Shown here piece by piece: positions 46,848 through 60,023 of a stretch of DNA of 64,000 bases. The first letter of the stretch is position 1; each line of letters starts with the position of its first letter. The DNA is from a virus (lineage: Duplodnaviria; Caudoviricetes). The position numbers and the translations under genes are program-made. Below the pieces are notes generated by a model, which saw only the letters and a program-made list of their open reading frames with translations, made no database searches and was not told the DNA's origin. The stretch is from IMG/VR virus record IMGVR_UViG_3300021387_000688; one strand, written 5' to 3'.

Positions 46848-47492
46848 ATGTTTAATTATGTTCTTAAAGAGGGTTTAACCCTACCTACCAATTTAGAAAA
46901 ATTCTATTACATTTATGAGATTAAAAATCTAAAAAATGGGAAAACTTATATAGGTAAACATGTAAGTAAAAAATTACCAGACAATTATTTTGGAAGCGGT
47001 ATTTATCTTAAAAATTCTATTAAAAAACATGGAATAGAAAATTTTCAAAAAACCATTTTAGATTTTGCAGAAAACTTAGAAGAATTAAGTAAGAAAGAAA
47101 AAGAATGGATAACCATATACAAATCTCAAGGAAAAGCAGAATTTAATCTTACTCAAGGGGGAGAAGGTGGAGATACTTTATCTCAACGTAGAGAAGAAGA
47201 TAATCTAAAACGTTCTCAATCCTTGAAAGAATATTGGACGCCAGATCATATAAGTTCTAGAAATAATAAAATATTCCAAACATGGAATTCTAAAACAGAA
47301 AACGAATTGAGAACTTTTAGAAAGAACCATAGTAAATATTTATATAAGCGAAAAGGGGTTGAAGAACCTTTTATGACTTTAAGGGAGATATCTGAATTAA
47401 CAGGGTTATCAGTTCATTGTATAAATATGGCTGCAAAAAATAACTCTACTACTAGAAATGGATTAATTTTTGAACGTACTTTGAAATCATAA
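46848..47492 (+). CDS. free-standing GIY-YIG homing endonuclease (Seg-like)
   Basis: YIYEIKN..NGKTYIGKH, YFGSG, FNLTQGGEG. Confidence 0.9.
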   Translation: MFNYVLKEGLTLPTNLEKFYYIYEIKNLKNGKTYIGKHVSKKLPDNYFGSGIYLKNSIKKHGIENFQKTILDFAENLEELSKKEKEWITIYKSQGKAEFNLTQGGEGGDTLSQRREEDNLKRSQSLKEYWTPDHISSRNNKIFQTWNSKTENELRTFRKNHSKYLYKRKGVEEPFMTLREISELTGLSVHCINMAAKNNSTTRNGLIFERTLKS

Positions 47493-47506
47493 TCTATAAT
47501 TATATC

Positions 47507-48034
47507 ATGTATAAAATAACAACAGATATAGAATTGCCAATAGCTCACTGCTTATACAGAGGAGCTTACTCAGGTTTGTGTTGCGGTAATGTTTACCGCG
47601 ATTCAAAGAACGATGGAGAAAAAGATAGATACGAATTAGGAGACAAAGTATTACCGGTACTACACGGTCATAATTATTTTGTCACAGTATCTCTTTCGTC
47701 AGAAGAACTAGACAAAAATGGAATGATAGTAGACTTCAAAAAGATGAAAAAAATAATTCATTCGTATTTTGATCAATTTGATCATTCCATGATTCTTACC
47801 CCAGACAATCCTTTAGTTGAAGTTTATAAAAAGAACTTCAAAGAAAACGGGATAGAATTTGAAAGATCTAGAATTTTTGTATGGGATGAAAATCCTACTG
47901 CAGAATACATGTCTCAGTATTGGTTCGAAAAAATGAAAGAATCCTTTATTAATGAAGGACTTAAATTGACACATCTCGCAGTAACTGTAGAAGAAACTTC
48001 AAAAAATTCAGTAACATATGAAGAGGATTTGTAA
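47507..48034 (+). CDS. queD: 6-carboxytetrahydropterin synthase
   Basis: AHCL, LHGHNY, GMIVDF, FDH, NPTAE, VEET. Confidence 0.92.
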   Translation: MYKITTDIELPIAHCLYRGAYSGLCCGNVYRDSKNDGEKDRYELGDKVLPVLHGHNYFVTVSLSSEELDKNGMIVDFKKMKKIIHSYFDQFDHSMILTPDNPLVEVYKKNFKENGIEFERSRIFVWDENPTAEYMSQYWFEKMKESFINEGLKLTHLAVTVEETSKNSVTYEEDL

Positions 48035-48804
48035 TGATTAGGTACAACGAAGAAAAGAAAGCTAATGAAATCTGTTTGATTAATATTTTCAAATCAATCG
48101 ATGGAGAAGCTTTTCATGCAGGACAACCAACAGTATTTGTAAGAACATTTGGATGCAATCTTAGATGCCCTTTCTGTGATACAAAGGAGTGTTGGACAGA
48201 AGAAAACTTCAATAAAGTTTATGAAGGTAAATTGAATTTGTCTTGGATGACGGCAGATGAGATTATTACAAAAGTTGAAGAAATGGAAAAAGATTTTCCT
48301 AATAAGTCAATTTGTTTGACAGGCGGAGAACCTTTGCTTCCTGAAAATGATCCAGTAACATTTGATCTTGTAAAAAAACTTATTTCATTACATTATGCAG
48401 TTAACGTAGAAACAGATGGCGCAGTAGATTATAAACCTTGGAAAGAAAGGTTTACAAAAATTACAATGAAGGACTATTATGGAAACCGCGAAGGTCTTTC
48501 ACTTATTACAGATTGGAAACTTCCTTGTTCAAAAATGAATAAGAAGATGATTGAATCAAATCTTTCAATATTGGATGAGTTTGATGTAATTAAATGTGTT
48601 ATTACAGATGATCCTGAAGATTGGAAAGAATTTGAAAGGATTTGTAAATCTGGAACAAAAGCAAAACTTTATTTGAGTCCATGTTTTGGTGACGTTACAA
48701 TGAGTAAGATTCCTGAATTTGTAATAGCGCATCCAGAATATCGTATAACGGCGCAGTTACAACAACACAAGTTCTTCTGGTCACCTAGTACCAAGGATGT
48801 TTAA
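48034..48804 (+). CDS. queE: 7-carboxy-7-deazaguanine synthase (radical SAM)
   Basis: FKSIDGE, GCNLRCPFCDT, TGGEP, VETDG, QLQQHK. Confidence 0.92.
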   Translation: MIRYNEEKKANEICLINIFKSIDGEAFHAGQPTVFVRTFGCNLRCPFCDTKECWTEENFNKVYEGKLNLSWMTADEIITKVEEMEKDFPNKSICLTGGEPLLPENDPVTFDLVKKLISLHYAVNVETDGAVDYKPWKERFTKITMKDYYGNREGLSLITDWKLPCSKMNKKMIESNLSILDEFDVIKCVITDDPEDWKEFERICKSGTKAKLYLSPCFGDVTMSKIPEFVIAHPEYRITAQLQQHKFFWSPSTKDV

Positions 48805-48850
48805 ACATCTTTTATTGATGCCCTCCAGTAAATCTAACTTTTAGATTCCA

Positions 48851-48878
48851 AAGCTCCTTCGAAAGAGGGGGCTTTTTT
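48851..48878 (+). terminator. intrinsic terminator
   Basis: AAGCTCCTTC-gaaa-GAGGGGGCTTTTTT. Confidence 0.85.
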
Positions 48879-48921
48879 ATTTTTACCATTACCTTACTAT
48901 ATTAAAGTAGAAGGAGAACAC

Positions 48922-49686
48922 ATGAGAAAGAATATTTGCGAATATGATGATTACTATCCAAAACCTCAAGCTGTTAATAATCCATTAAAGATTATTGAAG
49001 GACCTGACGGTAGAATTATTGACTATTGGCTTATTGATCCAATCGAAGATTTGAATGATTATATAGATTTTCTTAGAGAAGTAGATAATGCAAAAACTAC
49101 AGATACTATAAGAATCCATATCAATTGTTACGGAGGAGATGGTACTGTTGCTTATAACATTGTAGATGCTTTAAGAGAAAGTAGGGCCCAAATTGATATA
49201 CGTATTGAAGGAGCTTGTGCTTCTGCTGCAACCCTTATTATGTTAGCAGGTAATACTTGGTTTATTTTACCACACTCTTATGTAATGGTTCATTCATGGC
49301 ATGGATGGATTGCAGGTAAATGGGCTGAACAAAAAGCTAGATTCCATTACGACGAAGATGTATGTGAAAAGCAATTTAGAGAAATCTATAAAAACTTTAT
49401 GACAGATGAAGAAATTCAACTTTGTTTGGATGGTAAAGATTATTACTTTGATGCAAATGAAACTTTGAAACGTTTGCAGAATTATCAAGCAGATTTAGTA
49501 GCTAAACAAGAGGCTGTGGATAGAGTACAAGCAAAGTACAATGACTTGATGAAGAAAGAAGTTCAAGCAATTCTTGCAGGAGAAGCTTCTACAGAAGAGG
49601 AAAAGAAACCAAAACCAAAAGATAAAGAAAAAACTAAAAGTATAGTATCCGCGATTTCAGCGAAAGTAAAGAATACTAAAAAGTAA
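48922..49686 (+). CDS. ClpP-like serine protease
   Basis: IHINCYGG, GACASAATLI, VMVH. Confidence 0.88.
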   Translation: MRKNICEYDDYYPKPQAVNNPLKIIEGPDGRIIDYWLIDPIEDLNDYIDFLREVDNAKTTDTIRIHINCYGGDGTVAYNIVDALRESRAQIDIRIEGACASAATLIMLAGNTWFILPHSYVMVHSWHGWIAGKWAEQKARFHYDEDVCEKQFREIYKNFMTDEEIQLCLDGKDYYFDANETLKRLQNYQADLVAKQEAVDRVQAKYNDLMKKEVQAILAGEASTEEEKKPKPKDKEKTKSIVSAISAKVKNTKK

Positions 49687-49690
49687 TAGC

Positions 49691-49717
49691 AAAGGCTCCT
49701 AAAAAGGAGCCTTTTTT
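49691..49717 (+). terminator. intrinsic terminator
   Basis: AAAGGCTCCT..AGGAGCCTTTTTT. Confidence 0.85.
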
Positions 49718-49764
49718 ATTGCAGGAAACCCTTTTCTATATTTTTTTAATTAAAAGGAGCAAAA

Positions 49765-50985
49765 ATGGCTAAAGAAAAGAAAACAAATGCTACAGCAGAT
49801 GACGACTTTGATAAACTCTTAGGTTCTGTAGAAAAAGAATTCGGTGCAGTTTATTCAGGAGAAGCTGCGGCTATTCAGGATGAATATATTCTTTTGGATG
49901 CCCCACGTTTGGCTTGGGCATACGGTGGTAAACTTAAGTTGAATGCTATCCATCGTCTTAATGGTAAAGAGTCTGGTGGTAAAACAACTTTGGCAACTTA
50001 CCTTTGCGGTCAATGTCAGAAACGCAAGTTTGAAAAAGAAGGTAATTATAAAAATGCACACGTGGTTATCATTGATAACGAGCATACATTCGATGTAGTA
50101 CATGCAAAGGATTTAGGATTACTTCTTAATGATCCTATGACAGGAAAGCCTCTTGTACATATCCTTCGTAATAAATATGTAGAAGACCAGTGCGCGGCTT
50201 GGGAAAAGATTGTAGAGTCTGGAAGAATATGTGCTTCTATTTACGACTCCGATGCAGCCGCTATTAACAAAGCAGAGTTCGATAACGAAATTGGTAAAGC
50301 AAACTTCGGTGCTGGTGCAAAGGCAAACGGTGTAGTTATTAAGAGAATGAACTGGTATGTAGATACTTTCAAGACCCCTTTGTTCTGGATTTCACAGGAA
50401 CGTGCAAATCAGGAATTGATGGCCCACTTGCCAAAACCAACAGGAGGTGAAGCTGTAAACTTCTATCCATCTACTCGTTTCCGTGTAACTCCAAAAGAGT
50501 TTATTACAAAGAGTGGAGAGATTGTAGGTATTACAATGAAGATTAAGAACTACAAGAATAAGACAGGTATTCCATTCCGTGAATGTTTATTGGATGTTTA
50601 CTTCAAAGACGGTCCAGATTATACTCATGGTATTAATGGAGAAGGTCAGTATCTTGATATGTTACTTGAACTTGGAATTATTGCACAGCACGGCGGATGG
50701 TATTATTTATGGGAAGACCAGCCAGATAAGCTTGTTAAGATGCAGGGATGGGGCGGGGTTCAGAATTGGTTTAATGAACACCCAGATGTATTCCAGGATT
50801 TCAAAACAATGGTAAATGAAAAGATGTCTGGATATGATAGTGCACTTGATAAGAATACTGTAGAGGTAGACGAGGAAGCTGAATTCCAGAAGGAGCAGAA
50901 AGAAGCTTTAGCAAAACGTGAAGCCGCTCAGAAGGAAGTAGAAAGTAGTGAAACCAGTAACGAAGTAGAAAATATTGAGGAGTAA
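49765..50985 (+). CDS. recA: RecA/UvsX-like recombinase
   Basis: GKESGGKTT, IDNEH, IYDS, ISQER, TGGEA, KNK. Confidence 0.9.
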   Translation: MAKEKKTNATADDDFDKLLGSVEKEFGAVYSGEAAAIQDEYILLDAPRLAWAYGGKLKLNAIHRLNGKESGGKTTLATYLCGQCQKRKFEKEGNYKNAHVVIIDNEHTFDVVHAKDLGLLLNDPMTGKPLVHILRNKYVEDQCAAWEKIVESGRICASIYDSDAAAINKAEFDNEIGKANFGAGAKANGVVIKRMNWYVDTFKTPLFWISQERANQELMAHLPKPTGGEAVNFYPSTRFRVTPKEFITKSGEIVGITMKIKNYKNKTGIPFRECLLDVYFKDGPDYTHGINGEGQYLDMLLELGIIAQHGGWYYLWEDQPDKLVKMQGWGGVQNWFNEHPDVFQDFKTMVNEKMSGYDSALDKNTVEVDEEAEFQKEQKEALAKREAAQKEVESSETSNEVENIEE

Positions 50986-51023
50986 CCACTATCTATAATT
51001 AAATAAAAAGTAGGGGGCTGTGT

Positions 51024-51164
51024 ATGGGATACGAGTCTGCGGATGATGAATTTAATTTGTATGGAGTCATTGCTTCTGACGAAGTGGATGACGATAACTA
51101 TAATGAATCAGCCGAGGCTATGACCTTCGACCCTACTGAAGAATTATTAGACGAAGCAATTTAA
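51024..51164 (+). CDS. small acidic protein (46 aa)
   Basis: Not in ORF track; CTATAAT box and G-rich SD upstream; MGYESADDEF..LLDEAI. Confidence 0.6.
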   Translation: MGYESADDEFNLYGVIASDEVDDDNYNESAEAMTFDPTEELLDEAI

Positions 51165-51205
51165 TTACAAATTGCGCTAATTATAAACATTAAGGAATTA
51201 AGGCT

Positions 51206-51307
51206 ATGAAAAACGTATTGAACAGGAGTTTAGTATTATTACAACAACAAATAGCCATAACTTTGCCTTTATATAGAAACAGATATTATTGGAGAGATAA
51301 GGGGTGA
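51206..51307 (+). CDS. putative attenuator leader peptide (33 aa) of the tRNA array
   Basis: MKNVLNRSLVLLQQQIAITLPLYRNRYYWRDKG; AAGG/AAGGA upstream; codons match downstream anticodons. Confidence 0.8.
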   Translation: MKNVLNRSLVLLQQQIAITLPLYRNRYYWRDKG

Positions 51308-51343
51308 GTTGATTCCGAGAGAGTTTAGAATTCAACACCCCTT
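51299..51343 (+). promoter_or_regulatory. putative antiterminator hairpin
   Basis: AAGGGGT 51299-51305 pairs with ACCCCTT 51337-51343; GTTGA 51308-51312 with TCAAC 51332-51336. Confidence 0.75.
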
Positions 51344-51367
51344 TAGAGAAATCTAAAGGGGTTTTTT
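51337..51367 (+). terminator. intrinsic terminator (attenuator)
   Basis: ACCCCTTTAGA-gaaa-TCTAAAGGGGT followed by T run. Confidence 0.92.
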
Positions 51368-51432
51368 ATTGGTAGAAAATTTCTAATCTTTTTAGATAAA
51401 AAAGGATCGGGGATTAGCTATATTGAAAAAGT

Positions 51433-51643
51433 CAGTTAATTAATAATTGATAACAATCAAACAAAAGATCCTTACTGAAGTAGGTCGAGTAACTGAGGTA
51501 ACGTTTAGTAAGTGAAAGAATGAGGGCAGTTAAGACTGAGGTAGATACGATCATGAAATAACCGATGTATAGGCGGTGTAAAGATGATTGTTGAAGGTTG
51601 GATGCAGACGGCAGCGATAAATGCATCAGAGTTTGATTATCTG
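51433..51643 (+). ncRNA. unidentified structured RNA (about 210 nt)
   Basis: Ends pair; TAACAATCA 51451 with TGATTGTTG 51585; begins just after CTATATT box at 51418. Confidence 0.55.
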
Positions 51644-51728
51644 GGTAGGTGTGCCGAATGGTTTGAAGGCAGCGGACTGTAAATCCGTGACATTAGAAAC
51701 ACTGGGGGTTCGAATCCCTCCCTGCCCA
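51643..51728 (+). tRNA. tRNA-Tyr(GTA)
   Basis: Cloverleaf, GCGGA-CTGTAAA-TCCGT, long variable arm. Confidence 0.95.
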
Positions 51729-51732
51729 TCAT

Positions 51733-51815
51733 GCGTTCATGACCGGAGATGGCATCGGGCCTGACTGTAAATCAGGTGTATTCGTACATGGGGAGTTCGA
51801 GTCTCTCAGGGCGCA
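51733..51815 (+). tRNA. tRNA-Tyr(GTA), divergent second copy
   Basis: CCTGA-CTGTAAA-TCAGG; weak acceptor stem. Confidence 0.85.
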
Positions 51816-51855
51816 CTTTTGATCTTTGGCATTATTAAGGAAGGATTTTCTTTAT

Positions 51856-51941
51856 GCACTCGTGGCGGAACTGGTAGACGCCCAGGACTTAAAATCCTGT
51901 GTCGGTTAAACGGCGTACGGGTTCGATTCCCGTCGGGTGCA
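51856..51941 (+). tRNA. tRNA-Leu(TAA)
   Basis: CAGGA-CTTAAAA-TCCTG. Confidence 0.95.
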
Positions 51942-52060
51942 CTAATAGTTGCGGCTACACAACTTAAAAAGATACAACCGATCGAAGGGAACTGAGTATG
52001 TCCTTGTTAACGTTGTTATGTAGTGTTTGAAGGTTGCTGCAAACCGCACCTTCGTTTTAT

Positions 52061-52134
52061 GGTCCCGTAGCTTATCTGGATAAAGCATTTGCCTTCTAAG
52101 CAAAGGATTGGGGGTTCGAGTCCCTCCGGGATCA
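52061..52134 (+). tRNA. tRNA-Arg(TCT)
   Basis: TTTGC-CTTCTAA-GCAAA. Confidence 0.95.
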
Positions 52135-52143
52135 CTATTTTAT

Positions 52144-52214
52144 TCTCCCGTGGTGTAGCGGTCGCACATGAGGTTTTGATCCTTACAGGCTGGGTTCGAG
52201 TCCTAGCGGGAGAA
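52144..52214 (+). tRNA. tRNA-Gln(TTG)
   Basis: TGAGG-TTTTGAT-CCTTA. Confidence 0.93.
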
Positions 52215-52220
52215 CTACAG

Positions 52221-53051
52221 GGTTGGTTTCCGATCCTATTAAAAGATAAACGGTGAATACATAAGCCGTGAAAGTCATATTCGTAAAGGTATGGCGGTGG
52301 GAATTTATTTTCCACTCTACGTGAAAACAATGCATCTAACTTGTGATGGCGTTGACCGACGGCAAGTGCTGAGGTTGATAGTTGCAAGGCTCGGTAGTCG
52401 ACGAGCTTGGTTCAAGTTGAGAAGTTGCTTTCTTAATAGCAACTTTGACTACAAGAATGACAGAAGGTGTATTTATCCTCTAAGAAAGAATTGCAAGTTC
52501 CCATAGAGAGGATAACGAACAACGGTAGGTTCTTCAAAGAAATGAGGAGAATTGAAGTCAGTAGATCGAGTAGTTTTTGCAGACGAAAGTAGAAAGGTGA
52601 AGTTTTCTAAACCAGTCAAAAGCTGGCAAGGAACAAGCTAGACCTCATCTTTCAAGGTAGTCAACCGAAATTCTTATGATTAACTCAGTTGGATAGAGTA
52701 ATTGCCTCCTAAGCAATCTGTCGTAGGTTCAATTCCTACATCACAAGCAAAAGTGTCTAGCACAGCCAAATGAAAATGGCGTTATCCAGGTGAAATATAC
52801 TGGCTTGGTGAGTACCGCAAGGAAAGTCAAGAATGGAATGAAGTAGTCAACTGGTAAGAGCCCGCAAGCTCTTCAGGCCGCAAGCCGCTAGGGATGAAAA
52901 AGGAAATTATAAGTTTGGTTGTAGTGAGTTCGACAACACTCTTTAAGTTGTTCGCCATGCGTTCTACTATCAGAAATGGTAGTGTGATTGAAGTTCCGAA
53001 AGGGATTAAAATGAACGTTGTTTAGGTCAATAAATCTCAGCCTTTTCATTT
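52221..53051 (+). ncRNA. large structured RNA, GOLLD-like, with embedded tRNA
   Basis: About 830 nt; 5' domain closed by 52221-52231/52656-52666; 52893-52903 pairs with 53041-53050; many GNRA hairpins; tRNA in linker. Confidence 0.6.
52674..52747 (+). tRNA. tRNA-Arg(CCT)
   Basis: ATTGC-CTCCTAA-GCAAT. Confidence 0.9.
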
Positions 53052-53055
53052 TTTT

Positions 53056-53127
53056 CAATCTGTAGTTTAACGGATAGAACTTCAGCCTCCTAAGCTGAAA
53101 GTGCGAGTTCAATTCTCGCCAGGTTGA
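53056..53127 (+). tRNA. tRNA-Arg(CCT), second copy
   Basis: TCAGC-CTCCTAA-GCTGA. Confidence 0.92.
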
Positions 53128-53129
53128 CT

Positions 53130-53270
53130 ATATAGCATAAGTTGTTCCTATTAAGAGCATGACTAAAATCTGCTGGCAATGCGCCGTATGGGTTCGACTC
53201 CCATCGATCCTCTAAAGGGGATTGTGGTGGAATGGTAGACACGGCAGACTCATTATACAACCCGCTATAT
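53130..53270 (+). tRNA. circularly permuted tRNA-Leu (TAA or CAA) in paired flanks
   Basis: 3' half 53161-53211 precedes 5' half 53218-53250. Confidence 0.8.
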
Positions 53271-53277
53271 TTTTTAT

Positions 53278-53350
53278 AGGTCCTTAGTGTTAACGGTTAG
53301 CACGACAGTCTCCAAAACTGTTTGTGAGGGTTCGAATCCTTCAGGGCCTG
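53278..53350 (+). tRNA. tRNA-Trp(CCA)
   Basis: ACAGT-CTCCAAA-ACTGT. Confidence 0.95.
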
Positions 53351-53516
53351 AAACTGAATGGGTAGCCACTGAAAAGTAAATAGACTGTTTATGAAGTAGG
53401 GGTCCAAACAGAGCTTGTCGCTGATTACATATCAAAGAGTTATTAGTCTAGTCAACTAGATTCGGAGATGGTTTGAAGCTAAACAGGATGACAAAGGGCG
53501 AGTCCTGATTTTTTAT

Positions 53517-53600
53517 CGTTCGGTGGCGGAATTGGTAGACGCACTGGACTCAAAATCCAGCGGTGGCAACACCATGAGGGTTCGATTCCCTCCCGGACGA
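53517..53600 (+). tRNA. tRNA-Leu(CAA)
   Basis: CTGGA-CTCAAAA-TCCAG. Confidence 0.95.
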
Positions 53601-53730
53601 CTCAAATCCCTCTTCCTAAAGTTGGGAGAAAAAGTAACTTTCGGATAGCGGTACAGCCGCATCTTTTTTCTATCCAGTATGAAAGTTATGAGGACGGTGA
53701 AAGGCTCCCGTCCATTTTTTTAAGGAAAAG

Positions 53731-53872
53731 AAATTGCACAGAGTGTTCCTATTATTGCTTTGGGAGCCCTGGGTTGTAGGTTCGAGTCCTACCCTGCCAA
53801 CTATTTCAAAAAGTTAAAAACTTTGGCAGGTAGCTCAACTGGTAGAGCAAGGATTTTTACACTTCGCAATTT
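53731..53872 (+). tRNA. circularly permuted tRNA-Pro(TGG) in paired flanks
   Basis: 3' part 53757-53800 precedes 5' part 53824-53852; rejoined stem AGGGC-TTTGGGA-GCCCT. Confidence 0.85.
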
Positions 53873-53879
53873 TTATATA

Positions 53880-53947
53880 TGAGGTTTAGCTTAGACTCGG
53901 TTAAAGCAACGTGCACAGAAAGGAGGTTCGATTCCTTCTAACCTCAA
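53880..53947 (+). ncRNA. tRNA-like element lacking an anticodon arm
   Basis: TGAGGTT/AACCTCA acceptor, GCTT/AAGC D stem, GGTTCGATTCC T arm. Confidence 0.65.
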
Positions 53948-53949
53948 GC

Positions 53950-54398
53950 AAAGCCGTAGGGAGTAGGATAACTCTTTAGCTTATAGGTTCAGTACTAACC
54001 TGTGAACTAATCACTCCCGAACTAGGTACAGGAACGAAAACTGAAGTGGGGAAGAAGCGGAGGTTGGATACTGTGGTAATCCTAGAGCATGTGAAAGTAG
54101 GAGAGTTGACTTTGGAGAGTGCCAACTTAATGTTCAACCCTGATCCAAGTATCTCTTCCCTTATAGGAAGGGTACGAAAAATGCATTGGATAGAATTAGA
54201 TGCTCCTACATATAAAAAATGACGATTATCGCACACGAGATGATCAAAAAGGTGCAACAACGGTGGGGAAAGCCCATGCCGGTTAAAAGAGCAGATCTGC
54301 GCGATGTCCTTCGACGGTATCTGCCGTAAGAGGGTAGGGGAACCTTGTAGACAAGGGACTGAAGGGGTGTACTCGATCCGAAAAGTTATCTTTTTTTT
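53950..54398 (+). ncRNA. unidentified large structured RNA (about 430 nt)
   Basis: GATAACT 53967 pairs with AGTTATC 54384; GC-enriched, multiple hairpins, T run at end. Confidence 0.6.
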
Positions 54399-54402
54399 TA
54401 TT

Positions 54403-54492
54403 TCAGGATAATTCCTGCAAGGTCCGCGGATGTAGGAAATGGAAACCTTATAGATCAATAAGGAATAGGACGTTCGAATCGTTTGATCCTGA
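54403..54492 (+). ncRNA. atypical tRNA-like cloverleaf
   Basis: TCAGGAT/ATCCTGA, CCTGCA/TGTAGG, CCTTAT/ATAAGG, T loop TTCGAAT. Confidence 0.55.
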
Positions 54493-54750
54493 CTTCACAA
54501 CAGCTGGTGACAATTATCCAGGAACACTTAGAGTCCGCTAAGGTTAGCTGCAACTAACTGGATGCTCAATGTATAGCAAAGACTGTGCAAAGATGACTGG
54601 AAGAAAGAGACACGTGGAAGGGTGTCGGGTAACTTTGCTACCTCCATAACGAGAAACCCGCCGTGATTTGCAGTCAACGATACAGTTTCTCTACTTCCAA
54701 TTTTTGGAGTGATCCATATCGGATTATTAGACATTAAGTCTGAAACATAT

Positions 54751-54833
54751 TGGAGCGTATCTCAGCTGTCTTATAAACAGTCCGGTATAATTCGAGTAAT
54801 TGGTGGATGAGGGTTCAACTCCCTCCGCTCCAA
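54751..54833 (+). tRNA. D-armless tRNA-Ile(TAT)-like RNA with long variable region
   Basis: TGGAGCG/CGCTCCA; GCTGT-CTTATAA-ACAGT; GAGGG-TTCAACT-CCCTC. Confidence 0.7.
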
Positions 54834-54922
54834 CTATATGTAATGATATCATTACAGGAATAAGATAAAATGGACTACCCCAACATAATCGCGATATGTG
54901 GGTAACGAAAGAGTAGTCAAAA

Positions 54923-54994
54923 TCCGCCGTAGCTCATCTGGTCAGAGCAGCTCTTTTTAAGGGTATGTAGTGGGTTCGACCCCCACCGGTGGTT
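54923..54994 (+). tRNA. degenerate tRNA, probably Lys(TTT)
   Basis: Normal D and T arms; 4-bp anticodon stem GCTC-TTTTTAA-GGGT; 1:72 mismatch. Confidence 0.6.
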
Positions 54995-54997
54995 TAT

Positions 54998-55294
54998 ATG
55001 GAAAATGCACAGCCAAGAATTAAGTTTAAAAACTTTTGGCTTTGGTTTAAAGATCAAGTAATGCGTAAAAGGGCTTTCTATAATTTCTTTATAAGTAGAA
55101 ATGCTTGGGGAGCTTTTTCTATCAACTCCCACATCAGAGCAAGTACAGGGCAACCAAAAGTAACTTACAATACAGTAGAATCTGCGTTAAGGGCCGCAGA
55201 GAGTATGAGTAAAAAATATAACAAACATTTTTCAACTTATAAATGTTTGTTCTGCGATGGTTACCATGTAGGAAAAAATAGAGATAATAAATAG
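54998..55294 (+). CDS. small basic protein with C-terminal YxCxxCxGYH motif
   Basis: Start placed at ATG 54998; YKCLFCDGYHVG. Confidence 0.7.
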   Translation: MENAQPRIKFKNFWLWFKDQVMRKRAFYNFFISRNAWGAFSINSHIRASTGQPKVTYNTVESALRAAESMSKKYNKHFSTYKCLFCDGYHVGKNRDNK

Positions 55295-55322
55295 GAGTAG
55301 TTAACAACTACTCCTTTTTTTA
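55293..55322 (+). terminator. terminator closing the tRNA array
   Basis: AGGAGTAGTT-aac-AACTACTCCTTTTTTT. Confidence 0.9.
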
Positions 55323-55367
55323 TGCAAATTAAAACTTTTCTACTATATAATTAATAGGAGAATTTAT

Positions 55368-56789
55368 ATGCGTAAGAATTTATTTAAAGAAGCAATACCG
55401 GCAGAAAGGGACCGTAGAGCCGCAGGGGTAAAATACCGCGATTCAAGTGTAATAGATATGCTTCATGTTGAGGATGATACTTCCGGAGCTGCTACTGCTA
55501 AATTGATTTCTTTCTTAAAGAAAGAAAAATTCAGCGAATACCAAGATTATTTTCGAAAAACAATCAAGCTTTTTGGAGAAAACTATGATGTATATGTTCC
55601 TTATGTATATAAAAAAGGAACATTTACAGTAGTTAGATGGTTTATCGAACCTGGCAAGTACAATAGAACTGCATGGGCGGAATGGTATAATGATGAAGAG
55701 GATTGGGAATATCTTGATCCATCTTTCGCAAAAATCGTTGAGAGATATGGTCTAAAAAGAATGAAGGCTTACATAGGGGATGATCCTTACTATGGTTTAG
55801 GACTTCGTATGCAGAATACTGAAATGACTTCTAATGATTTTGTTAATAAATTGTTAGTGGTTTATAATAAACTTGAAAAGGTAAAAGATAGTTACAATAC
55901 AACTAGTCAAATGGATGATAGAGAATACTACACATATAAAGGCAAGTTACCAAATAACAACCTTCAAATAAACGTATTCTATGTAGACGGAGAAAATGGT
56001 TGTACAATTGAATATGATTGTGAAGTATTAGGTGAAGATCTTAAATGCTATGTTGAATCTGAAAATTCTGCAGTCGGTCTAGATCTTAACGAACCTTCTG
56101 TAACAAAACCTTTCTTTGAGGTTTTAGCTGAAGAAGGAATTATTGAAGAGGAAGATGTAGATTCTTTAGCTGAAGAATTTGATAATGGGCCAACTTATAA
56201 TTATCTTCAAATTTTTGATGTAAGTGATTGGCCAAAGTATTTTGAAATGGTAGGGGAATTCTTAAAAGCAGAGGGTTATATAACTGAATACAATGTAGAA
56301 GCTAGTAGAGCCGTAAACTCTCGTAGAAAGAACCGTATTAAGAACAATCCAAATCTTAGACAGCAGTACGAATCCAGAATTTCTAAAATCTCAAGAAGAA
56401 TGAGAGAAGCAGAAGAAGATTGGGATGACCTTGGATACGATGATTCAGATGCAGGTGTAGAAGATTGGGATGATCCTAATGAAGCTTTAGATGGTGAAGA
56501 TTATTTCACTTATGATGATCCTGATTATACAGGAATGAATTCTGGGGAAAGAGCTTATGACCATTACGATTCTGATATGGAAGATGTAATTGCAGATTCA
56601 ATGCCAACCCGTAAAAAGGGATTAGGTATTGGAAAGAAAAGAGGAGACTCTTCATATTTCAATAAGGATTATTTAGACGCCCCAGATATGTGGGATGAAA
56701 ATGGAGACAATGTTCCTGAAGAAATTGAATGGAAGTTGACTAAAAAAGTTGCAGAATCTAAAAAACCTTTCAAAACAAGATTGTATTAA
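55368..56789 (+). CDS. acidic putative capsid-internal protein
   Basis: LFKEA, YESRISKISRRMREAE, VAESKK motifs; SD AGGAG. Confidence 0.6.
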   Translation: MRKNLFKEAIPAERDRRAAGVKYRDSSVIDMLHVEDDTSGAATAKLISFLKKEKFSEYQDYFRKTIKLFGENYDVYVPYVYKKGTFTVVRWFIEPGKYNRTAWAEWYNDEEDWEYLDPSFAKIVERYGLKRMKAYIGDDPYYGLGLRMQNTEMTSNDFVNKLLVVYNKLEKVKDSYNTTSQMDDREYYTYKGKLPNNNLQINVFYVDGENGCTIEYDCEVLGEDLKCYVESENSAVGLDLNEPSVTKPFFEVLAEEGIIEEEDVDSLAEEFDNGPTYNYLQIFDVSDWPKYFEMVGEFLKAEGYITEYNVEASRAVNSRRKNRIKNNPNLRQQYESRISKISRRMREAEEDWDDLGYDDSDAGVEDWDDPNEALDGEDYFTYDDPDYTGMNSGERAYDHYDSDMEDVIADSMPTRKKGLGIGKKRGDSSYFNKDYLDAPDMWDENGDNVPEEIEWKLTKKVAESKKPFKTRLY

Positions 56790-56808
56790 TAAATAAATTC
56801 TCCAAAGT

Positions 56809-56836
56809 ACCCTCTATCATTGATAGAGGGTTTTTT
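56809..56836 (+). terminator. intrinsic terminator
   Basis: ACCCTCTATC..GATAGAGGGTTTTTT. Confidence 0.88.
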
Positions 56837-56875
56837 ATTGGCCCCTCTACTATTTTATAGAAAAAGGAGTCTAAT

Positions 56876-57211
56876 ATGGAAAAGGTAGATTTGATTAAAG
56901 AGATTATGGATAGTAATCTTAAAGACGAAACAAAGTTAGAATTGGTAAAAACTTTGATGCTATCTAAAGATGAAGCCACCACTCAGCCCCTCCAAATGCC
57001 TTACGTTATAAGAGAAGTTTATAAAGAAGTTCCAAAACCATGGTGGAACGAAATTACTTGCGGAGATAGTACTTCTAAGAAAACAAATCCTTTAGAACTT
57101 TGGGATGACAGTGGTTGGTGGCAGCAACACTTGAAAGATGCGCAAGCAGATGTAGAATCTATCCTTCATCCTAATGCTACTTGGGGAATTAATACGGTAG
57201 TAAGTTGCTAA
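56876..57211 (+). CDS. hypothetical protein
   Basis: SD AAGGAG. Confidence 0.75.
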   Translation: MEKVDLIKEIMDSNLKDETKLELVKTLMLSKDEATTQPLQMPYVIREVYKEVPKPWWNEITCGDSTSKKTNPLELWDDSGWWQQHLKDAQADVESILHPNATWGINTVVSC

Positions 57212-57218
57212 TTATTTC

Positions 57219-57689
57219 ATGAATGAATGGCAATATAATAAAGGATCGTTTCAAGGATTCTGGTATCTTAGAGATGGAACAATAATTGAATTAGGTGAAG
57301 GAGAAGAACATCTGGAATACTTTCTTCACAATTATAAAGAATTTGGAGTAACCGATCAAGAAATAGAAGACATTTGTAATATTAAAGGAATTACCCTTGA
57401 TTGGGAATTACATCATTTTATGGAAATGTCTGAACGAGAAGTTGACTTCCTTTGCCTGGCACTCAAAAAAGGAAATCTAAGAGTTAGATTATATGATTGT
57501 TTTAACGATCCTTATATTTCTATAGAATATTATGGTCAACGAAATAAAAAATACGTTTGCAATTGTTTAATAGATATGGAAGGGGAATATTTTAGTAAAG
57601 TCCACCTTCCATATTATTTTTATGATTACGAATCCGATTCTGGAATTGATATAAAATCAATAGACAAAGCTATTGTTGAGTTTGCGTAG
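57219..57689 (+). CDS. hypothetical protein
   Basis: CTAATTATTTC-ATG. Confidence 0.75.
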   Translation: MNEWQYNKGSFQGFWYLRDGTIIELGEGEEHLEYFLHNYKEFGVTDQEIEDICNIKGITLDWELHHFMEMSEREVDFLCLALKKGNLRVRLYDCFNDPYISIEYYGQRNKKYVCNCLIDMEGEYFSKVHLPYYFYDYESDSGIDIKSIDKAIVEFA

Positions 57690-58191
57690 GACTCCAAGAA
57701 GCCCACAAAGTAGATTCAGCTCTGTAAATTCTTTCTCGCCATTCATCCCCTTTCAAATTATCTATTTGATACAGGTCTTCATGTTCTGTCACATACTGTT
57801 TAACTTTTTCATCCCAATTAGATTCATTGGCCTTCAAAATATCTTTAATATGGCTGTCCCAAATAACAGGGTAGCAATGAGGATTAATAATATGACAGAT
57901 TTTAGAAATTGCAGAAATCTGTCTACCTACTCCCATTCCTATATCTGGCCCACTAAAGATATTTAATTCTCCAGCCGGTATTTCATAACGATGCTGTACC
58001 AACCAATCACAAGTTGCTTTTCTAAGAGAACCCTTTCTTACAGCCCAACCATTACCTCTATCAGCTACAGCCTGAAAAAGTAAACTCATTGTTTTATCAT
58101 TAGCTGTATGCCAATTACTAAAGAGAACATCAAAGCTTTCTTTTTTCCAATTTACAGATCCTTCAATTGAAGGGTTAATTGCTTCACTCAT
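57670..58191 (-). CDS. hypothetical protein (predicted leaderless), possibly HhH glycosylase-like
   Basis: ISAISKICH..P..YPVIWDS; CTATATT-N6-ATG. Confidence 0.65.
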   Translation of the reverse strand: MSEAINPSIEGSVNWKKESFDVLFSNWHTANDKTMSLLFQAVADRGNGWAVRKGSLRKATCDWLVQHRYEIPAGELNIFSGPDIGMGVGRQISAISKICHIINPHCYPVIWDSHIKDILKANESNWDEKVKQYVTEHEDLYQIDNLKGDEWRERIYRAESTLWASWSPTQTQQ

Positions 58192-58275
58192 GTTAGTAAT
58201 ATAGTTTTCAATTTTTTACCTTTTTCGAAATTATAGTTCCGGGTTTAAGCTATAATATTAGCAAGAGGTGCAAAT

Positions 58276-58995
58276 ATGAATATAGTTAAAACCCTTACTG
58301 AAAACAGAATTAAAGACATCCCTGACTTCCACCGTGTACCTGCTCATGATTTTAGGGACGACGGAAGTACCTTCACCTGCTGGGTATATAAAGGAGTACC
58401 TATGACTCAGTGCCGTGGAGGTGGACGAACATATCTTTGTCTCAGAACAGACTACATTCCGACTTTGAAAAAGGATGGACTTTCAGATCTTGAATTTAAT
58501 ATCCCTTACGACTTCTGGCACGATAACAAAGGAAAAGACGTTGAAGATGTATTTAACGGGGTGCCAGAATTTGATTTTGATCAGCTTCTTAAGAATGTAG
58601 ATACTCTTATCGAACAAATCAAAACTGTAACTGCAAAATTCAACAAAATTGAAATTGAAGAATTCCCAATTGAAGAGCAGTGCTGGAAAGAAGCAAAATT
58701 CCTCAACGATTTCACAGAAGATATTAAAACAAAATTCAACTGGATGGAAGCATCTAACTACGATACAGATCGCTTTAAGGATTATTGGAAATCTCTTAAG
58801 AGATATGCAGAGCAGGCTAACAAACATGCATTTGCATACCGCATGGGTGAAGTTTCAAAGCGCGTGGCTTTTGAAGACAGTAACAGACTTGCAAAGTATG
58901 GTTATGTTACTACTCAGATTACTGATGATGAATTTTACATCAAATCACTTAAAGAAATGGTAGAAAAATATAAATATAAAGGAGTAGCCGCATGA
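58276..58995 (+). CDS. hypothetical protein
   Basis: CTATAAT box, SD GAGGTG. Confidence 0.8.
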   Translation: MNIVKTLTENRIKDIPDFHRVPAHDFRDDGSTFTCWVYKGVPMTQCRGGGRTYLCLRTDYIPTLKKDGLSDLEFNIPYDFWHDNKGKDVEDVFNGVPEFDFDQLLKNVDTLIEQIKTVTAKFNKIEIEEFPIEEQCWKEAKFLNDFTEDIKTKFNWMEASNYDTDRFKDYWKSLKRYAEQANKHAFAYRMGEVSKRVAFEDSNRLAKYGYVTTQITDDEFYIKSLKEMVEKYKYKGVAA

Positions 58996-59243
58996 ATTTT
59001 GTAACCAATAAAGTCAAGAAATCTTTGGGAAATTATATTATTTCTCATTATTCAGATCTTAACAAGTGCCGTACTAAGGAAGATGTTAAAAACTTTGTAT
59101 TGGCGGGAAAAACAGAAGTCAATGAAGAATACATTGATTCCTTTGTAATTCCTACAATTGATAAACAGCCTAGCGTAGCTAGAGCTATTGATTTTGTTGG
59201 ACGCAACCTTGTGTTGGCTGGTGAAAATATGAGGGCCTATTAA
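58992..59243 (+). CDS. hypothetical protein
   Basis: SD AAGGAG, ATGA overlap. Confidence 0.75.
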   Translation: MNFVTNKVKKSLGNYIISHYSDLNKCRTKEDVKNFVLAGKTEVNEEYIDSFVIPTIDKQPSVARAIDFVGRNLVLAGENMRAY

Positions 59244-59244
59244 T

Positions 59245-59610
59245 ATGAAACTTGAATTTGGAAAATACACAGAAGTTACAAAACTTGCTAAGAAATTAAA
59301 TTCTCCACTCTTCGGATGTTATGAAAAAGTTTACATTTGTCCAGATACACTGAATTGGTGGCTGTCATGTATTCAGAAAGACATCAATGAAGATTATGAA
59401 GAATGCCCAGGTACCTATCTTGTAGAAAGAGATAAAATCGATTATCCAAATTATGACAGAATTCAGGATGCTTATCTTAATGAAGAAACGGTTTCTGAAG
59501 TACTTGAGGAATGGGCTTGCGAAACTTGGGATTCTGAAGAAACATCTTCTCTTGAAGAAGCTGTCGAAATAGTAGATGGTGGTTATGGAATCATTCCGGA
59601 GGAAGACTAA
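59245..59610 (+). CDS. hypothetical protein
   Basis: ORF in operon. Confidence 0.75.
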   Translation: MKLEFGKYTEVTKLAKKLNSPLFGCYEKVYICPDTLNWWLSCIQKDINEDYEECPGTYLVERDKIDYPNYDRIQDAYLNEETVSEVLEEWACETWDSEETSSLEEAVEIVDGGYGIIPEED

Positions 59611-59942
59611 TGGATTTTACTTTGATGGGAGAAGAATTCCACGTTCGTACAGATAATCTTAAATCTGTTGAACGCTATGGAAATGCAGTAAAGGTTGAAT
59701 ATAAAGACGGTTCCTACAATATTTGGGAAGCTAAGAATATCTATCAGGTAAATAAAATCAATCTTTTAGAGATTGTTTTGAAAGCTTTGATGATTGGTTA
59801 TACCCAAGGCCGCAACGATCTTTATGACGAAGGTAAAGTTATTACAAAAACAATTCAGCAGAAGATTGATGCTTATGACGAATTGGTAGAAGAACTTGAA
59901 CCAAATCCTTATAAAGAATACCACGAAATTAAAATATCATAA
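59610..59942 (+). CDS. hypothetical protein
   Basis: SD GGAGG, TAATG overlap. Confidence 0.75.
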   Translation: MDFTLMGEEFHVRTDNLKSVERYGNAVKVEYKDGSYNIWEAKNIYQVNKINLLEIVLKALMIGYTQGRNDLYDEGKVITKTIQQKIDAYDELVEELEPNPYKEYHEIKIS

Positions 59943-60023
59943 AACATTCGTTGAATGTGAAAATAAGATTATTGGAATGTGAGTCAGCACGAAAGGACGT
60001 TAAACTGTTGTTGGAGTTTGCAT

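Follow-up and report, generated by a model that had tools for sequence, protein, structure and literature searches.

The closest described counterparts of the element considered here are the leader-peptide attenuators of enterobacteria, such as trpL, hisL, pheL, thrL and the leaders of ilvGMEDA and ilvBN, for which Rfam holds Trp, His, Leu, Thr and Phe leader families. In the trp, his, thr and ilv leaders, a short open reading frame (ORF) rich in the monitored codons is combined with a terminator and a mutually exclusive antiterminator. In addition, a ribosome standing at the leader stop codon masks the antiterminator strand in leaders of the trp/his type, and a single leader senses several amino acids in the case of ilv and thr. 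A second class of systems, the T-box riboswitches of Firmicutes, works without translation: uncharged tRNA is bound directly, through the T-box sequence and a specifier codon. Finally, the tRNA arrays of phages have been studied, notably in T5 and in mycobacteriophages, and are viewed either as compensation for codon usage or as a counter-defence against host systems that cleave tRNAs; this work addresses the function of the tRNAs, not the control of their transcription.

As read here, the phage locus described below resembles the enterobacterial leaders in all the respects just listed, and it is like the T-boxes in that the state of tRNAs would decide between the terminator and the antiterminator ahead of translation-related genes, and so the extent of read-through. 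It differs from the T-boxes in possessing an ORF with a Shine-Dalgarno site and in lacking any T-box match, even in permissive Rfam searches. Regarding the enterobacterial leaders, these regulate biosynthetic enzymes, whereas the phage element precedes tRNAs and other non-coding RNAs; moreover, its match to them operates at the level of isoacceptors and codons (TTR not CTN, AGR not CGN, ATA not ATY), it covers eight amino acids, and it is phage-borne. The Rfam Trp, His, Leu, Thr and Phe leader models give no plus-strand match at E values up to 10, and the sole match to any leader family, Phe_leader near the second leader discussed below, lies on the wrong strand and scores 27.9 bits against a gathering score of 55.

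We judge it likely, without being certain, that the element is a working ribosome-mediated transcription attenuator heading the first tRNA and non-coding RNA cluster of this phage; that the ORF is translated and that it controls read-through are inferences. The logic itself is known, being that of the trp, his, thr and ilv leaders, and the structural criteria derived from them are met save for the protector hairpin. What is new is the tRNA and non-coding RNA target, the multi-codon barcode at isoacceptor level, the use of one leader per block, and the phage setting. The original prediction, which knew of no such description for a phage tRNA array, agrees with the outcome of full-text literature searches, which brought up no account of leader-peptide control of tRNA genes.

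The window, i.e., the whole stretch of 64,000 nucleotides that was analysed, is phage DNA with a GC content of 34%, and it encodes an anaerobic ribonucleotide reductase, a radical-SAM protein, a Clp-like protease and a RecA-like protein. Its source is an uncultured jumbo phage of the gut, because metagenome contigs with near-identical sequence reach 389 kb. The features of the locus, together with those of the second leader of the same phage, are collected in Table 1.

Table 1. Position and properties of the features discussed; positions refer to the window, except where contig L019 is named.
Feature	Position	Strand	Remarks
RecA gene	49765-50985		upstream of the leader ORF
46-codon acidic ORF	51024-51164		between RecA and the leader ORF
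Candidate sigma-70-type promoter	51076-51104	+	CTGACG, 17 nt, TATAAT; 10/12; best plus-strand site of an 8-kb scan
Motif TTGCGCTAATTATA	51172-51185	+	sole exact match in the window
Shine-Dalgarno-like AAGGAA	51192-51197	+	8-9 nt upstream of the leader ATG; read from the sequence
Leader ORF (leader 1)	51206-51307	+	33 codons (ATG + 32 sense), then TGA at 51305-51307
Antiterminator hairpin	51299-51343	+	-15.4 kcal/mol; fold of the transcript up to 51347
Intrinsic terminator	51337-51368	+	11-bp stem (51337-51362), GAAA loop, T6 tail; -17.5 kcal/mol
Presumed regulated unit	51642-54995	+	ORF-free cluster of tRNAs and GOLLD-like RNA; ARAGORN, Rfam
Second tRNA-Tyr(GTA)-like gene	51733-51815		degenerate; directly after tRNA-Tyr; Rfam 31 bits, just above the gathering score
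GOLLD-like RNA	52592-53043		Rfam RF02032, full model matched; E 1.5e-25; 97.8 bits, short of the gathering score (150)
Circularly permuted tRNA-Pro(UGG)	53752-53875		YrlA (Y RNA-like) match below threshold, 43.8 bits against a gathering score of 69
Atypical tRNA-Ile(UAU)	54741-54834		83-94 nt, long extra region; Rfam 35.4 bits; ARAGORN at lowered threshold only
Leader 2	L019 19367-19540		38-codon ORF ending in TGA; AAAGGAG Shine-Dalgarno site

The leader ORF is preceded by its Shine-Dalgarno-like sequence at a distance of 8-9 nt, and a second AAGG (51200-51203) is too near the start codon. Its codon content had been described as TTA four times, TTG twice, AGA three times, AGG once, CAA three times in succession, TAT three times, ATA twice, and TGG, AAA, AAG and CCT once each; the recount agrees and gives 22 of the 32 post-start codons. 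It is also true, as had been remarked, that every Leu codon is TTR (6/6), every Arg codon AGR (4/4) and every Ile codon ATA (2/2), and that the nearby RecA gene makes free use of other codons, with CTT occurring 13 times, CGT 8 times, ATT 18 times and CAG 14 times. As a side observation, the genes of the window favour TTA, AGA and CAA on average while RecA is heavy in CTT, CGT, ATT and CAG, which suggests gene classes of differing codon usage, possibly early versus late, and would bear on when the phage needs its tRNAs.

The enrichment check called for by the original prediction was carried out against a background frequency of 0.275, obtained from the 17,072 codons of 66 long ORFs of the window. 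With the codon set of that prediction, the 22/32 of the leader compare with 27.5% expected (binomial p 1.4e-6); the leader ranks first among 166 short ATG ORFs of the window, and 22 is the maximum across 127,810 windows of 32 codons in all six frames. A strict set, restricted to verified anticodons with standard wobble and leaving out Pro, gives 21/32 against a background of 0.281 (p 1.1e-5), and with this set a score of 21-22/32 is also attained elsewhere in the 75 kb, at about six places, namely Lys/Tyr/Leu-rich stretches within real genes. The bias of the leader is present at two independent levels, one being amino-acid composition (21/32 against 0.371, p 0.001) and the other synonymous choice, for which resampling with the peptide held fixed gives p 8e-4.

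These other high-scoring windows, together with the tendency of AT-rich DNA to favour TTA, AGA, AAA, TAT and ATA codons, leave room for the view that the hairpin at 51337 is an ordinary operon end that terminates the transcript of RecA and the 46-codon ORF, and that the small ORF is a chance or unimportant one whose codon match and complementarity are coincidental. No terminator separates the operon of these two genes from the leader, as this view would have it, and gene callers left the leader ORF uncalled on related contigs. We nevertheless regard an ordinary operon end as unlikely on account of four observations, which concern the terminators, the stop codons, the second tRNA block and the comparison of strains and which are given with the respective results.

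The RNA structures at the end of the leader are those that had been proposed. The strong terminator claimed at 51337-51367 is present, its T-run extending to 51368, and the claimed pairing between AAGGGGT(GA)GTTGA, at 51299-51312, and TCAACACCCCTT, at 51332-51343, is found as well: AAGGGGT pairs with ACCCCTT and GTTGA with TCAAC, and the two helices enclose an inner stem-loop. AAGGGGT comprises the final two sense codons of the leader and the first base of its TGA, so that the stop codon falls inside the deciding strand. ACCCCTT, on the other side, forms the first seven of the eleven bases of the terminator 5' arm and is thus common to the antiterminator, and AAGGGGT recurs as the end of the terminator 3' arm. 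Because of this common segment and this recurrence, terminator and antiterminator are mutually exclusive. The antiterminator can form before the terminator 3' arm has been transcribed, and it prevails in folds of the nascent transcript.

Competition for the 5' arm sets the terminators in front of the tRNA blocks apart. When the 16 strong terminators found in 75 kb are ranked by competing pairing, the two that precede tRNAs take the first two places, with ddG values of -17.1 kcal/mol for leader 2 and -9.1 kcal/mol for leader 1, and the next terminator reaches -3.5 kcal/mol (n=16). The competing energy of leader 1 is attained by 1.4% of dinucleotide shuffles of the upstream 70 nt (P 0.014 only), and that of leader 2 by 0 of 1000 shuffles (P < 0.001). 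That the two outliers are exactly these terminators, and that in both copies the stop codon lies within the antiterminator strand, speak against a mere operon end.

The sole hint of a 1:2 protector hairpin of the trpL kind is CCUUUAU:AUAAGGG, a weak pairing over 7 bp that contains G-U pairs and appears in one minimum free energy fold, and it is not convincing. Since no clear hairpin of this kind is seen, untranslated transcripts should read through, and the phage element would thereby differ from trpL in its default state.

The cluster that follows, which is the presumed regulated unit, contains genes for tRNA-Tyr, a Tyr-like element, Leu-UAA, Arg-UCU, Gln, Arg-CCU (two copies), Trp, Leu-CAA, an atypical Ile-UAU, Lys and a permuted Pro-UGG. 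Nine tRNAs are called by ARAGORN, namely Tyr-GTA, Leu-TAA, Arg-TCT, Gln-TTG, Arg-CCT (twice), Trp-CCA, Leu-CAA and Lys-TTT. The tRNA set of the original prediction stands in so far as ARAGORN finds all of it except two members: Ile-TAT, which requires a lowered threshold or Rfam, and Pro-TGG, whose gene is permuted. When the halves of the latter (about 53818-53847 and about 53750-53806) are rejoined, ARAGORN calls a tRNA-Pro(tgg). The degenerate Tyr-like gene receives no ARAGORN call.

No credible ORF is found from 51400 to about 55000, and 3' of the cluster come a 98-codon ORF and a strong terminator (55293-55315). A tRNA-Arg(CCT) gene, at 52674-52747, is embedded in the GOLLD-like RNA, and this RNA may be co-regulated with the tRNAs because it lies inside the unit 3' of the attenuator.

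The same phage presents the same architecture a second time, at its next tRNA block about 10 kb past the end of the window. There, GAGCCTTA overlaps the TGA of leader 2 and, by pairing with the 5' arm of a GAAA-loop terminator of 11 bp, begins a hairpin of 14 bp, and the tRNAs encoded 3' of it are Val-TAC, Glu-TTC, Asp-GTC, Ala-TGC, Pro-TGG and Ile-GAT. Leader 2 is unrelated in sequence to leader 1, and its codon set differs from that of leader 1, consisting of Val, Ala, Glu, Asp, Pro and Ile-AUY codons that fit its own block. Leader 1 contains 21 codons of the first set and 3 of the second, and leader 2 contains 5 and 20, respectively; for the two leaders and two sets, this specificity of leader for array has a Fisher p of 2.3e-6. 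Even the Ile codons track the arrays, with ATA, ATA in front of Ile-UAU and mostly ATT or ATC in front of Ile-GAU. Taken alone, leader 2 is enriched only modestly (20/37, p 0.0035) and does not stand out from the six-frame windows, and its scan statistic is unremarkable because acidic and Ala/Val-rich protein segments score higher. If the hairpin merely ended an operon, the same coincidence would therefore have to have arisen in two places of one genome, and the codon sets, although opposite, would both have to suit the array next to them. We also observed that an oddly shaped tRNA-Ile(GAT)-like element, resembling the atypical tRNA-Ile(UAU), starts at about 20390, where L019 ends.

Comparison of strains shows which parts of the locus are kept. 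In a strain contig (L001), the genes for the Clp-like protein, RecA and the 46-codon ORF diverge by 5.0-5.8% from their counterparts in the window, and only 2 differences fall in the 204 positions from 51165 to 51368, with 0/70 in the antiterminator and terminator. The stretch from leader to terminator thus shows about one fifth of the divergence of the flanking genes, which again disfavours an unimportant ORF at an operon end. The sole change within the leader ORF turns TTA into TTG, a codon that is still cognate to the Leu tRNAs of the array. As an aside, the ORF-free spacer that separates the terminator from the first tRNA (51369-51641, about 270 nt) diverges between strains, unlike the leader region, at a near-neutral level (12/273 in L001, or 4.4%).

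For leader 2, two contigs (L021 and L019) differ by 4.5-5.2% in the flanks, by 1/70 in the upstream region and by 0/59 in the switch, and the ORF itself has undergone five substitutions, three of them replacements, and the in-frame insertion of 3 nt (GAT). Frame and structures are kept and the peptide is not, which fits a leader peptide and not a functional micro-protein. The idea that the small ORFs encode such proteins, e.g., membrane or regulatory peptides, and that their composition resembles the tRNA sets by chance, appears to us scarcely credible: both ORFs do carry a Shine-Dalgarno site, and their frames are unbroken in every strain examined, yet the two peptides are unrelated to each other and have no Pfam match, and the three replacements and codon insertion in leader 2, next to invariant non-coding flanks, are the opposite of what purifying selection on a protein leaves behind.

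The complete absence of differences in the competing hairpins, 0/70 and 0/59, makes them the best-conserved part of the locus, and it would suit a genuine terminator/antiterminator switch that is set by an RNA-binding protein of phage or host, by direct tRNA binding in the manner of a T-box, or by an antisense RNA, the ORF being incidental. A resemblance to the PyrR-binding attenuator (RF00515) points in this direction and remains below threshold, with 26.3 bits against a gathering score of 54 and an E value of 0.17, so that this identity was rejected; no Rfam family reaches its threshold, and there is no T-box match. A switch of this kind leaves unexplained the match of codon sets, the isoacceptor specificity, the Shine-Dalgarno sites, the in-frame indel of leader 2 and the placement of the stop codon inside the antiterminator strand in both copies, and we consider it very unlikely.

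The attenuator reading, which we prefer, can now be held against its known models point by point. An ORF with ribosome-binding site and start codon stands on the same strand as the genes to be regulated, its translation being inferred; the ORF is enriched in codons that report on the regulated pathway; an intrinsic terminator lies between the leader and these genes; an antiterminator excludes that terminator; and the stop codon is placed within the deciding strand. The attenuation logic that had been inferred is thus supported by every check that the sequence allowed, with regard to the Shine-Dalgarno site, codon match down to isoacceptors, terminator, competing hairpin, stop placement, strain conservation and the presence of a second copy.

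In the mechanism that we propose, transcription would enter from upstream and the 33-codon leader would be translated. Were TTR, AGR, CAA, TAT, ATA, AAR and TGG codons decoded fast, the ribosome would reach the TGA and cover the AAGGGGT-GA-GTTGA strand; with this strand covered, the terminator hairpin would form and RNA polymerase would halt at 51368. A ribosome lagging within approximately the first 27 codons would instead leave the strand free to pair with TCAAC-ACCCCTT, which would take most of the terminator 5' arm, and once this arm was occupied the polymerase would continue into the tRNA genes. If no ribosome were loaded, read-through into the tRNA genes would be expected likewise. The phage thus probably makes these tRNAs only when ribosomes decode the leader codons slowly. 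Because the products are the very tRNAs that read the leader codons, the circuit would amount to negative feedback on the decoding capacity for this codon set, and each tRNA block would stand behind a 'barcode' leader of its own.

Translation of the ORF, the response of read-through to decoding speed and the natural cause of tRNA depletion are all inferred. Depletion may be brought about by a mismatch of codon usage with the host or by tRNA-cleaving host defences, both of which are inferences. As in the arrays of the T5 and mycobacteriophage type, U34 tRNAs (Lys-UUU, Gln-UUG, Arg-UCU, Leu-UAA) abound in the present one, which also includes Tyr; U34 tRNAs and tRNA-Tyr are typical targets of anticodon nucleases and also typical readers of AT-rich codons. 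A host anticodon nuclease as the trigger is an attractive inference and no more, for which there is no evidence here, and simple feedback on the decoding speed of AT-rich codons accounts for the design equally well.

If the attenuator is real, it represents a new use of a classical device, in which decoding speed feeds back directly on tRNA synthesis, and it would account for the dosing of the large tRNA arrays of jumbo phages. The correspondence between leader codons and array anticodons would supply a sequence signature that predicts which tRNAs form one regulatory unit, as well as a handle on the timing of expression of GOLLD-like RNAs. Moreover, the sensing of tRNA depletion by a phage, whether caused by codon mismatch or by anticodon nucleases, becomes testable with short synthetic constructs despite the unknown host. 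A bolder extension, which we think rather unlikely, is that large phages carry a modular, multi-channel sensor of tRNA supply, with one codon-barcode leader for each block, which gauges how fast each codon set is decoded on its own and turns on replacement tRNAs and the co-transcribed GOLLD-like RNA just when the host tRNAs in question are scarce or cut by host anticodon nucleases; if true, it would be an inducible counter-defence as well as a homeostat.

How transcription reaches the leader rests on weaker indications. The candidate sigma-70-type promoter, a consensus match only, lies within the end of the 46-codon ORF, about 100 nt 5' of the leader start, and sigma-70-like sites in the region show no excess over shuffle expectation. 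No sigma-70-like plus-strand site is found between 51368 and 51642. The two promoter-like boxes previously pointed out, CTAATTA (51177) and CTATATT (51418), both exist, and an unrecognised promoter 3' of the terminator, e.g., at the CTATATT box, cannot be excluded. A copy of TTGCGCTAATTATA identical in 12 of 14 positions, TTGCACTAACTATA, precedes leader 2, an occurrence with an estimated chance of about 0.07, and the pair may represent a phage promoter element, which from the letters alone is suggestive only. Since the window shows no enrichment of the motif TTGCNCTAANTATA, no claim of a promoter class is made.

Searches for further instances in relatives were of limited yield. No diverged relative with the same locus was recovered, so that data on covariation of leader and array across species are lacking for leader 1. 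In the contigs that carry RecA relatives of 60-72% identity (L002-L011), RecA is followed by other genes and not by an array; the contigs of two relatives of the downstream gene (L015, L016) end about 460 nt upstream of it, inside the array; and a 59%-identical relative of the gene that precedes leader 2 is without an array. Compared by DNA, GenBank phages gave nothing but tRNA matches, and by protein only RecA relatives below 30% identity, with no match for the 473-aa neighbour. In IMG/VR, neither RecA nor an alignment of this neighbour retrieved any relative, JGI metagenomes returned an identical contig only, and GTDB genomes no match. Contigs of this phage and its relatives were seen to break repeatedly inside tRNA arrays (the end of the 389-kb scaffold, L014, L015 and L016), and arrays and leaders are accordingly under-represented in assemblies. 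Separately, genes of IS605-type TnpB/OrfB occur near RecA in related jumbo-phage contigs (L007 4535-6170; L009 and L010 1-918), one of them with a Y1 transposase.

A cultured and unrelated phage, Caulobacter phage phiCbK, was examined over positions 47000-60000 of JX100813 (L024). Its genome paper mentions neither attenuation nor leaders. In front of three tRNA blocks (L024 1082-1167, 2541-2770 and 4342-4503), small ORFs are followed by rho-independent terminators annotated in GenBank. One of these ORFs, leader A, shows no codon enrichment, and the other two are enriched solely for the codons of their own block, with 21/44 (p 5e-5) and 11/31 (p 0.018), which counts in favour of the attenuator reading. 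The 21/44 belong to gp083 (45 aa), which is enriched in the Pro, Lys, Leu and Ser codons of its block. A 32-codon ORF is located directly 3' of a promoter-like site, TTGACA...TAGGGT, and ahead of the Phe/Val/Ile/Gln/Gly block.
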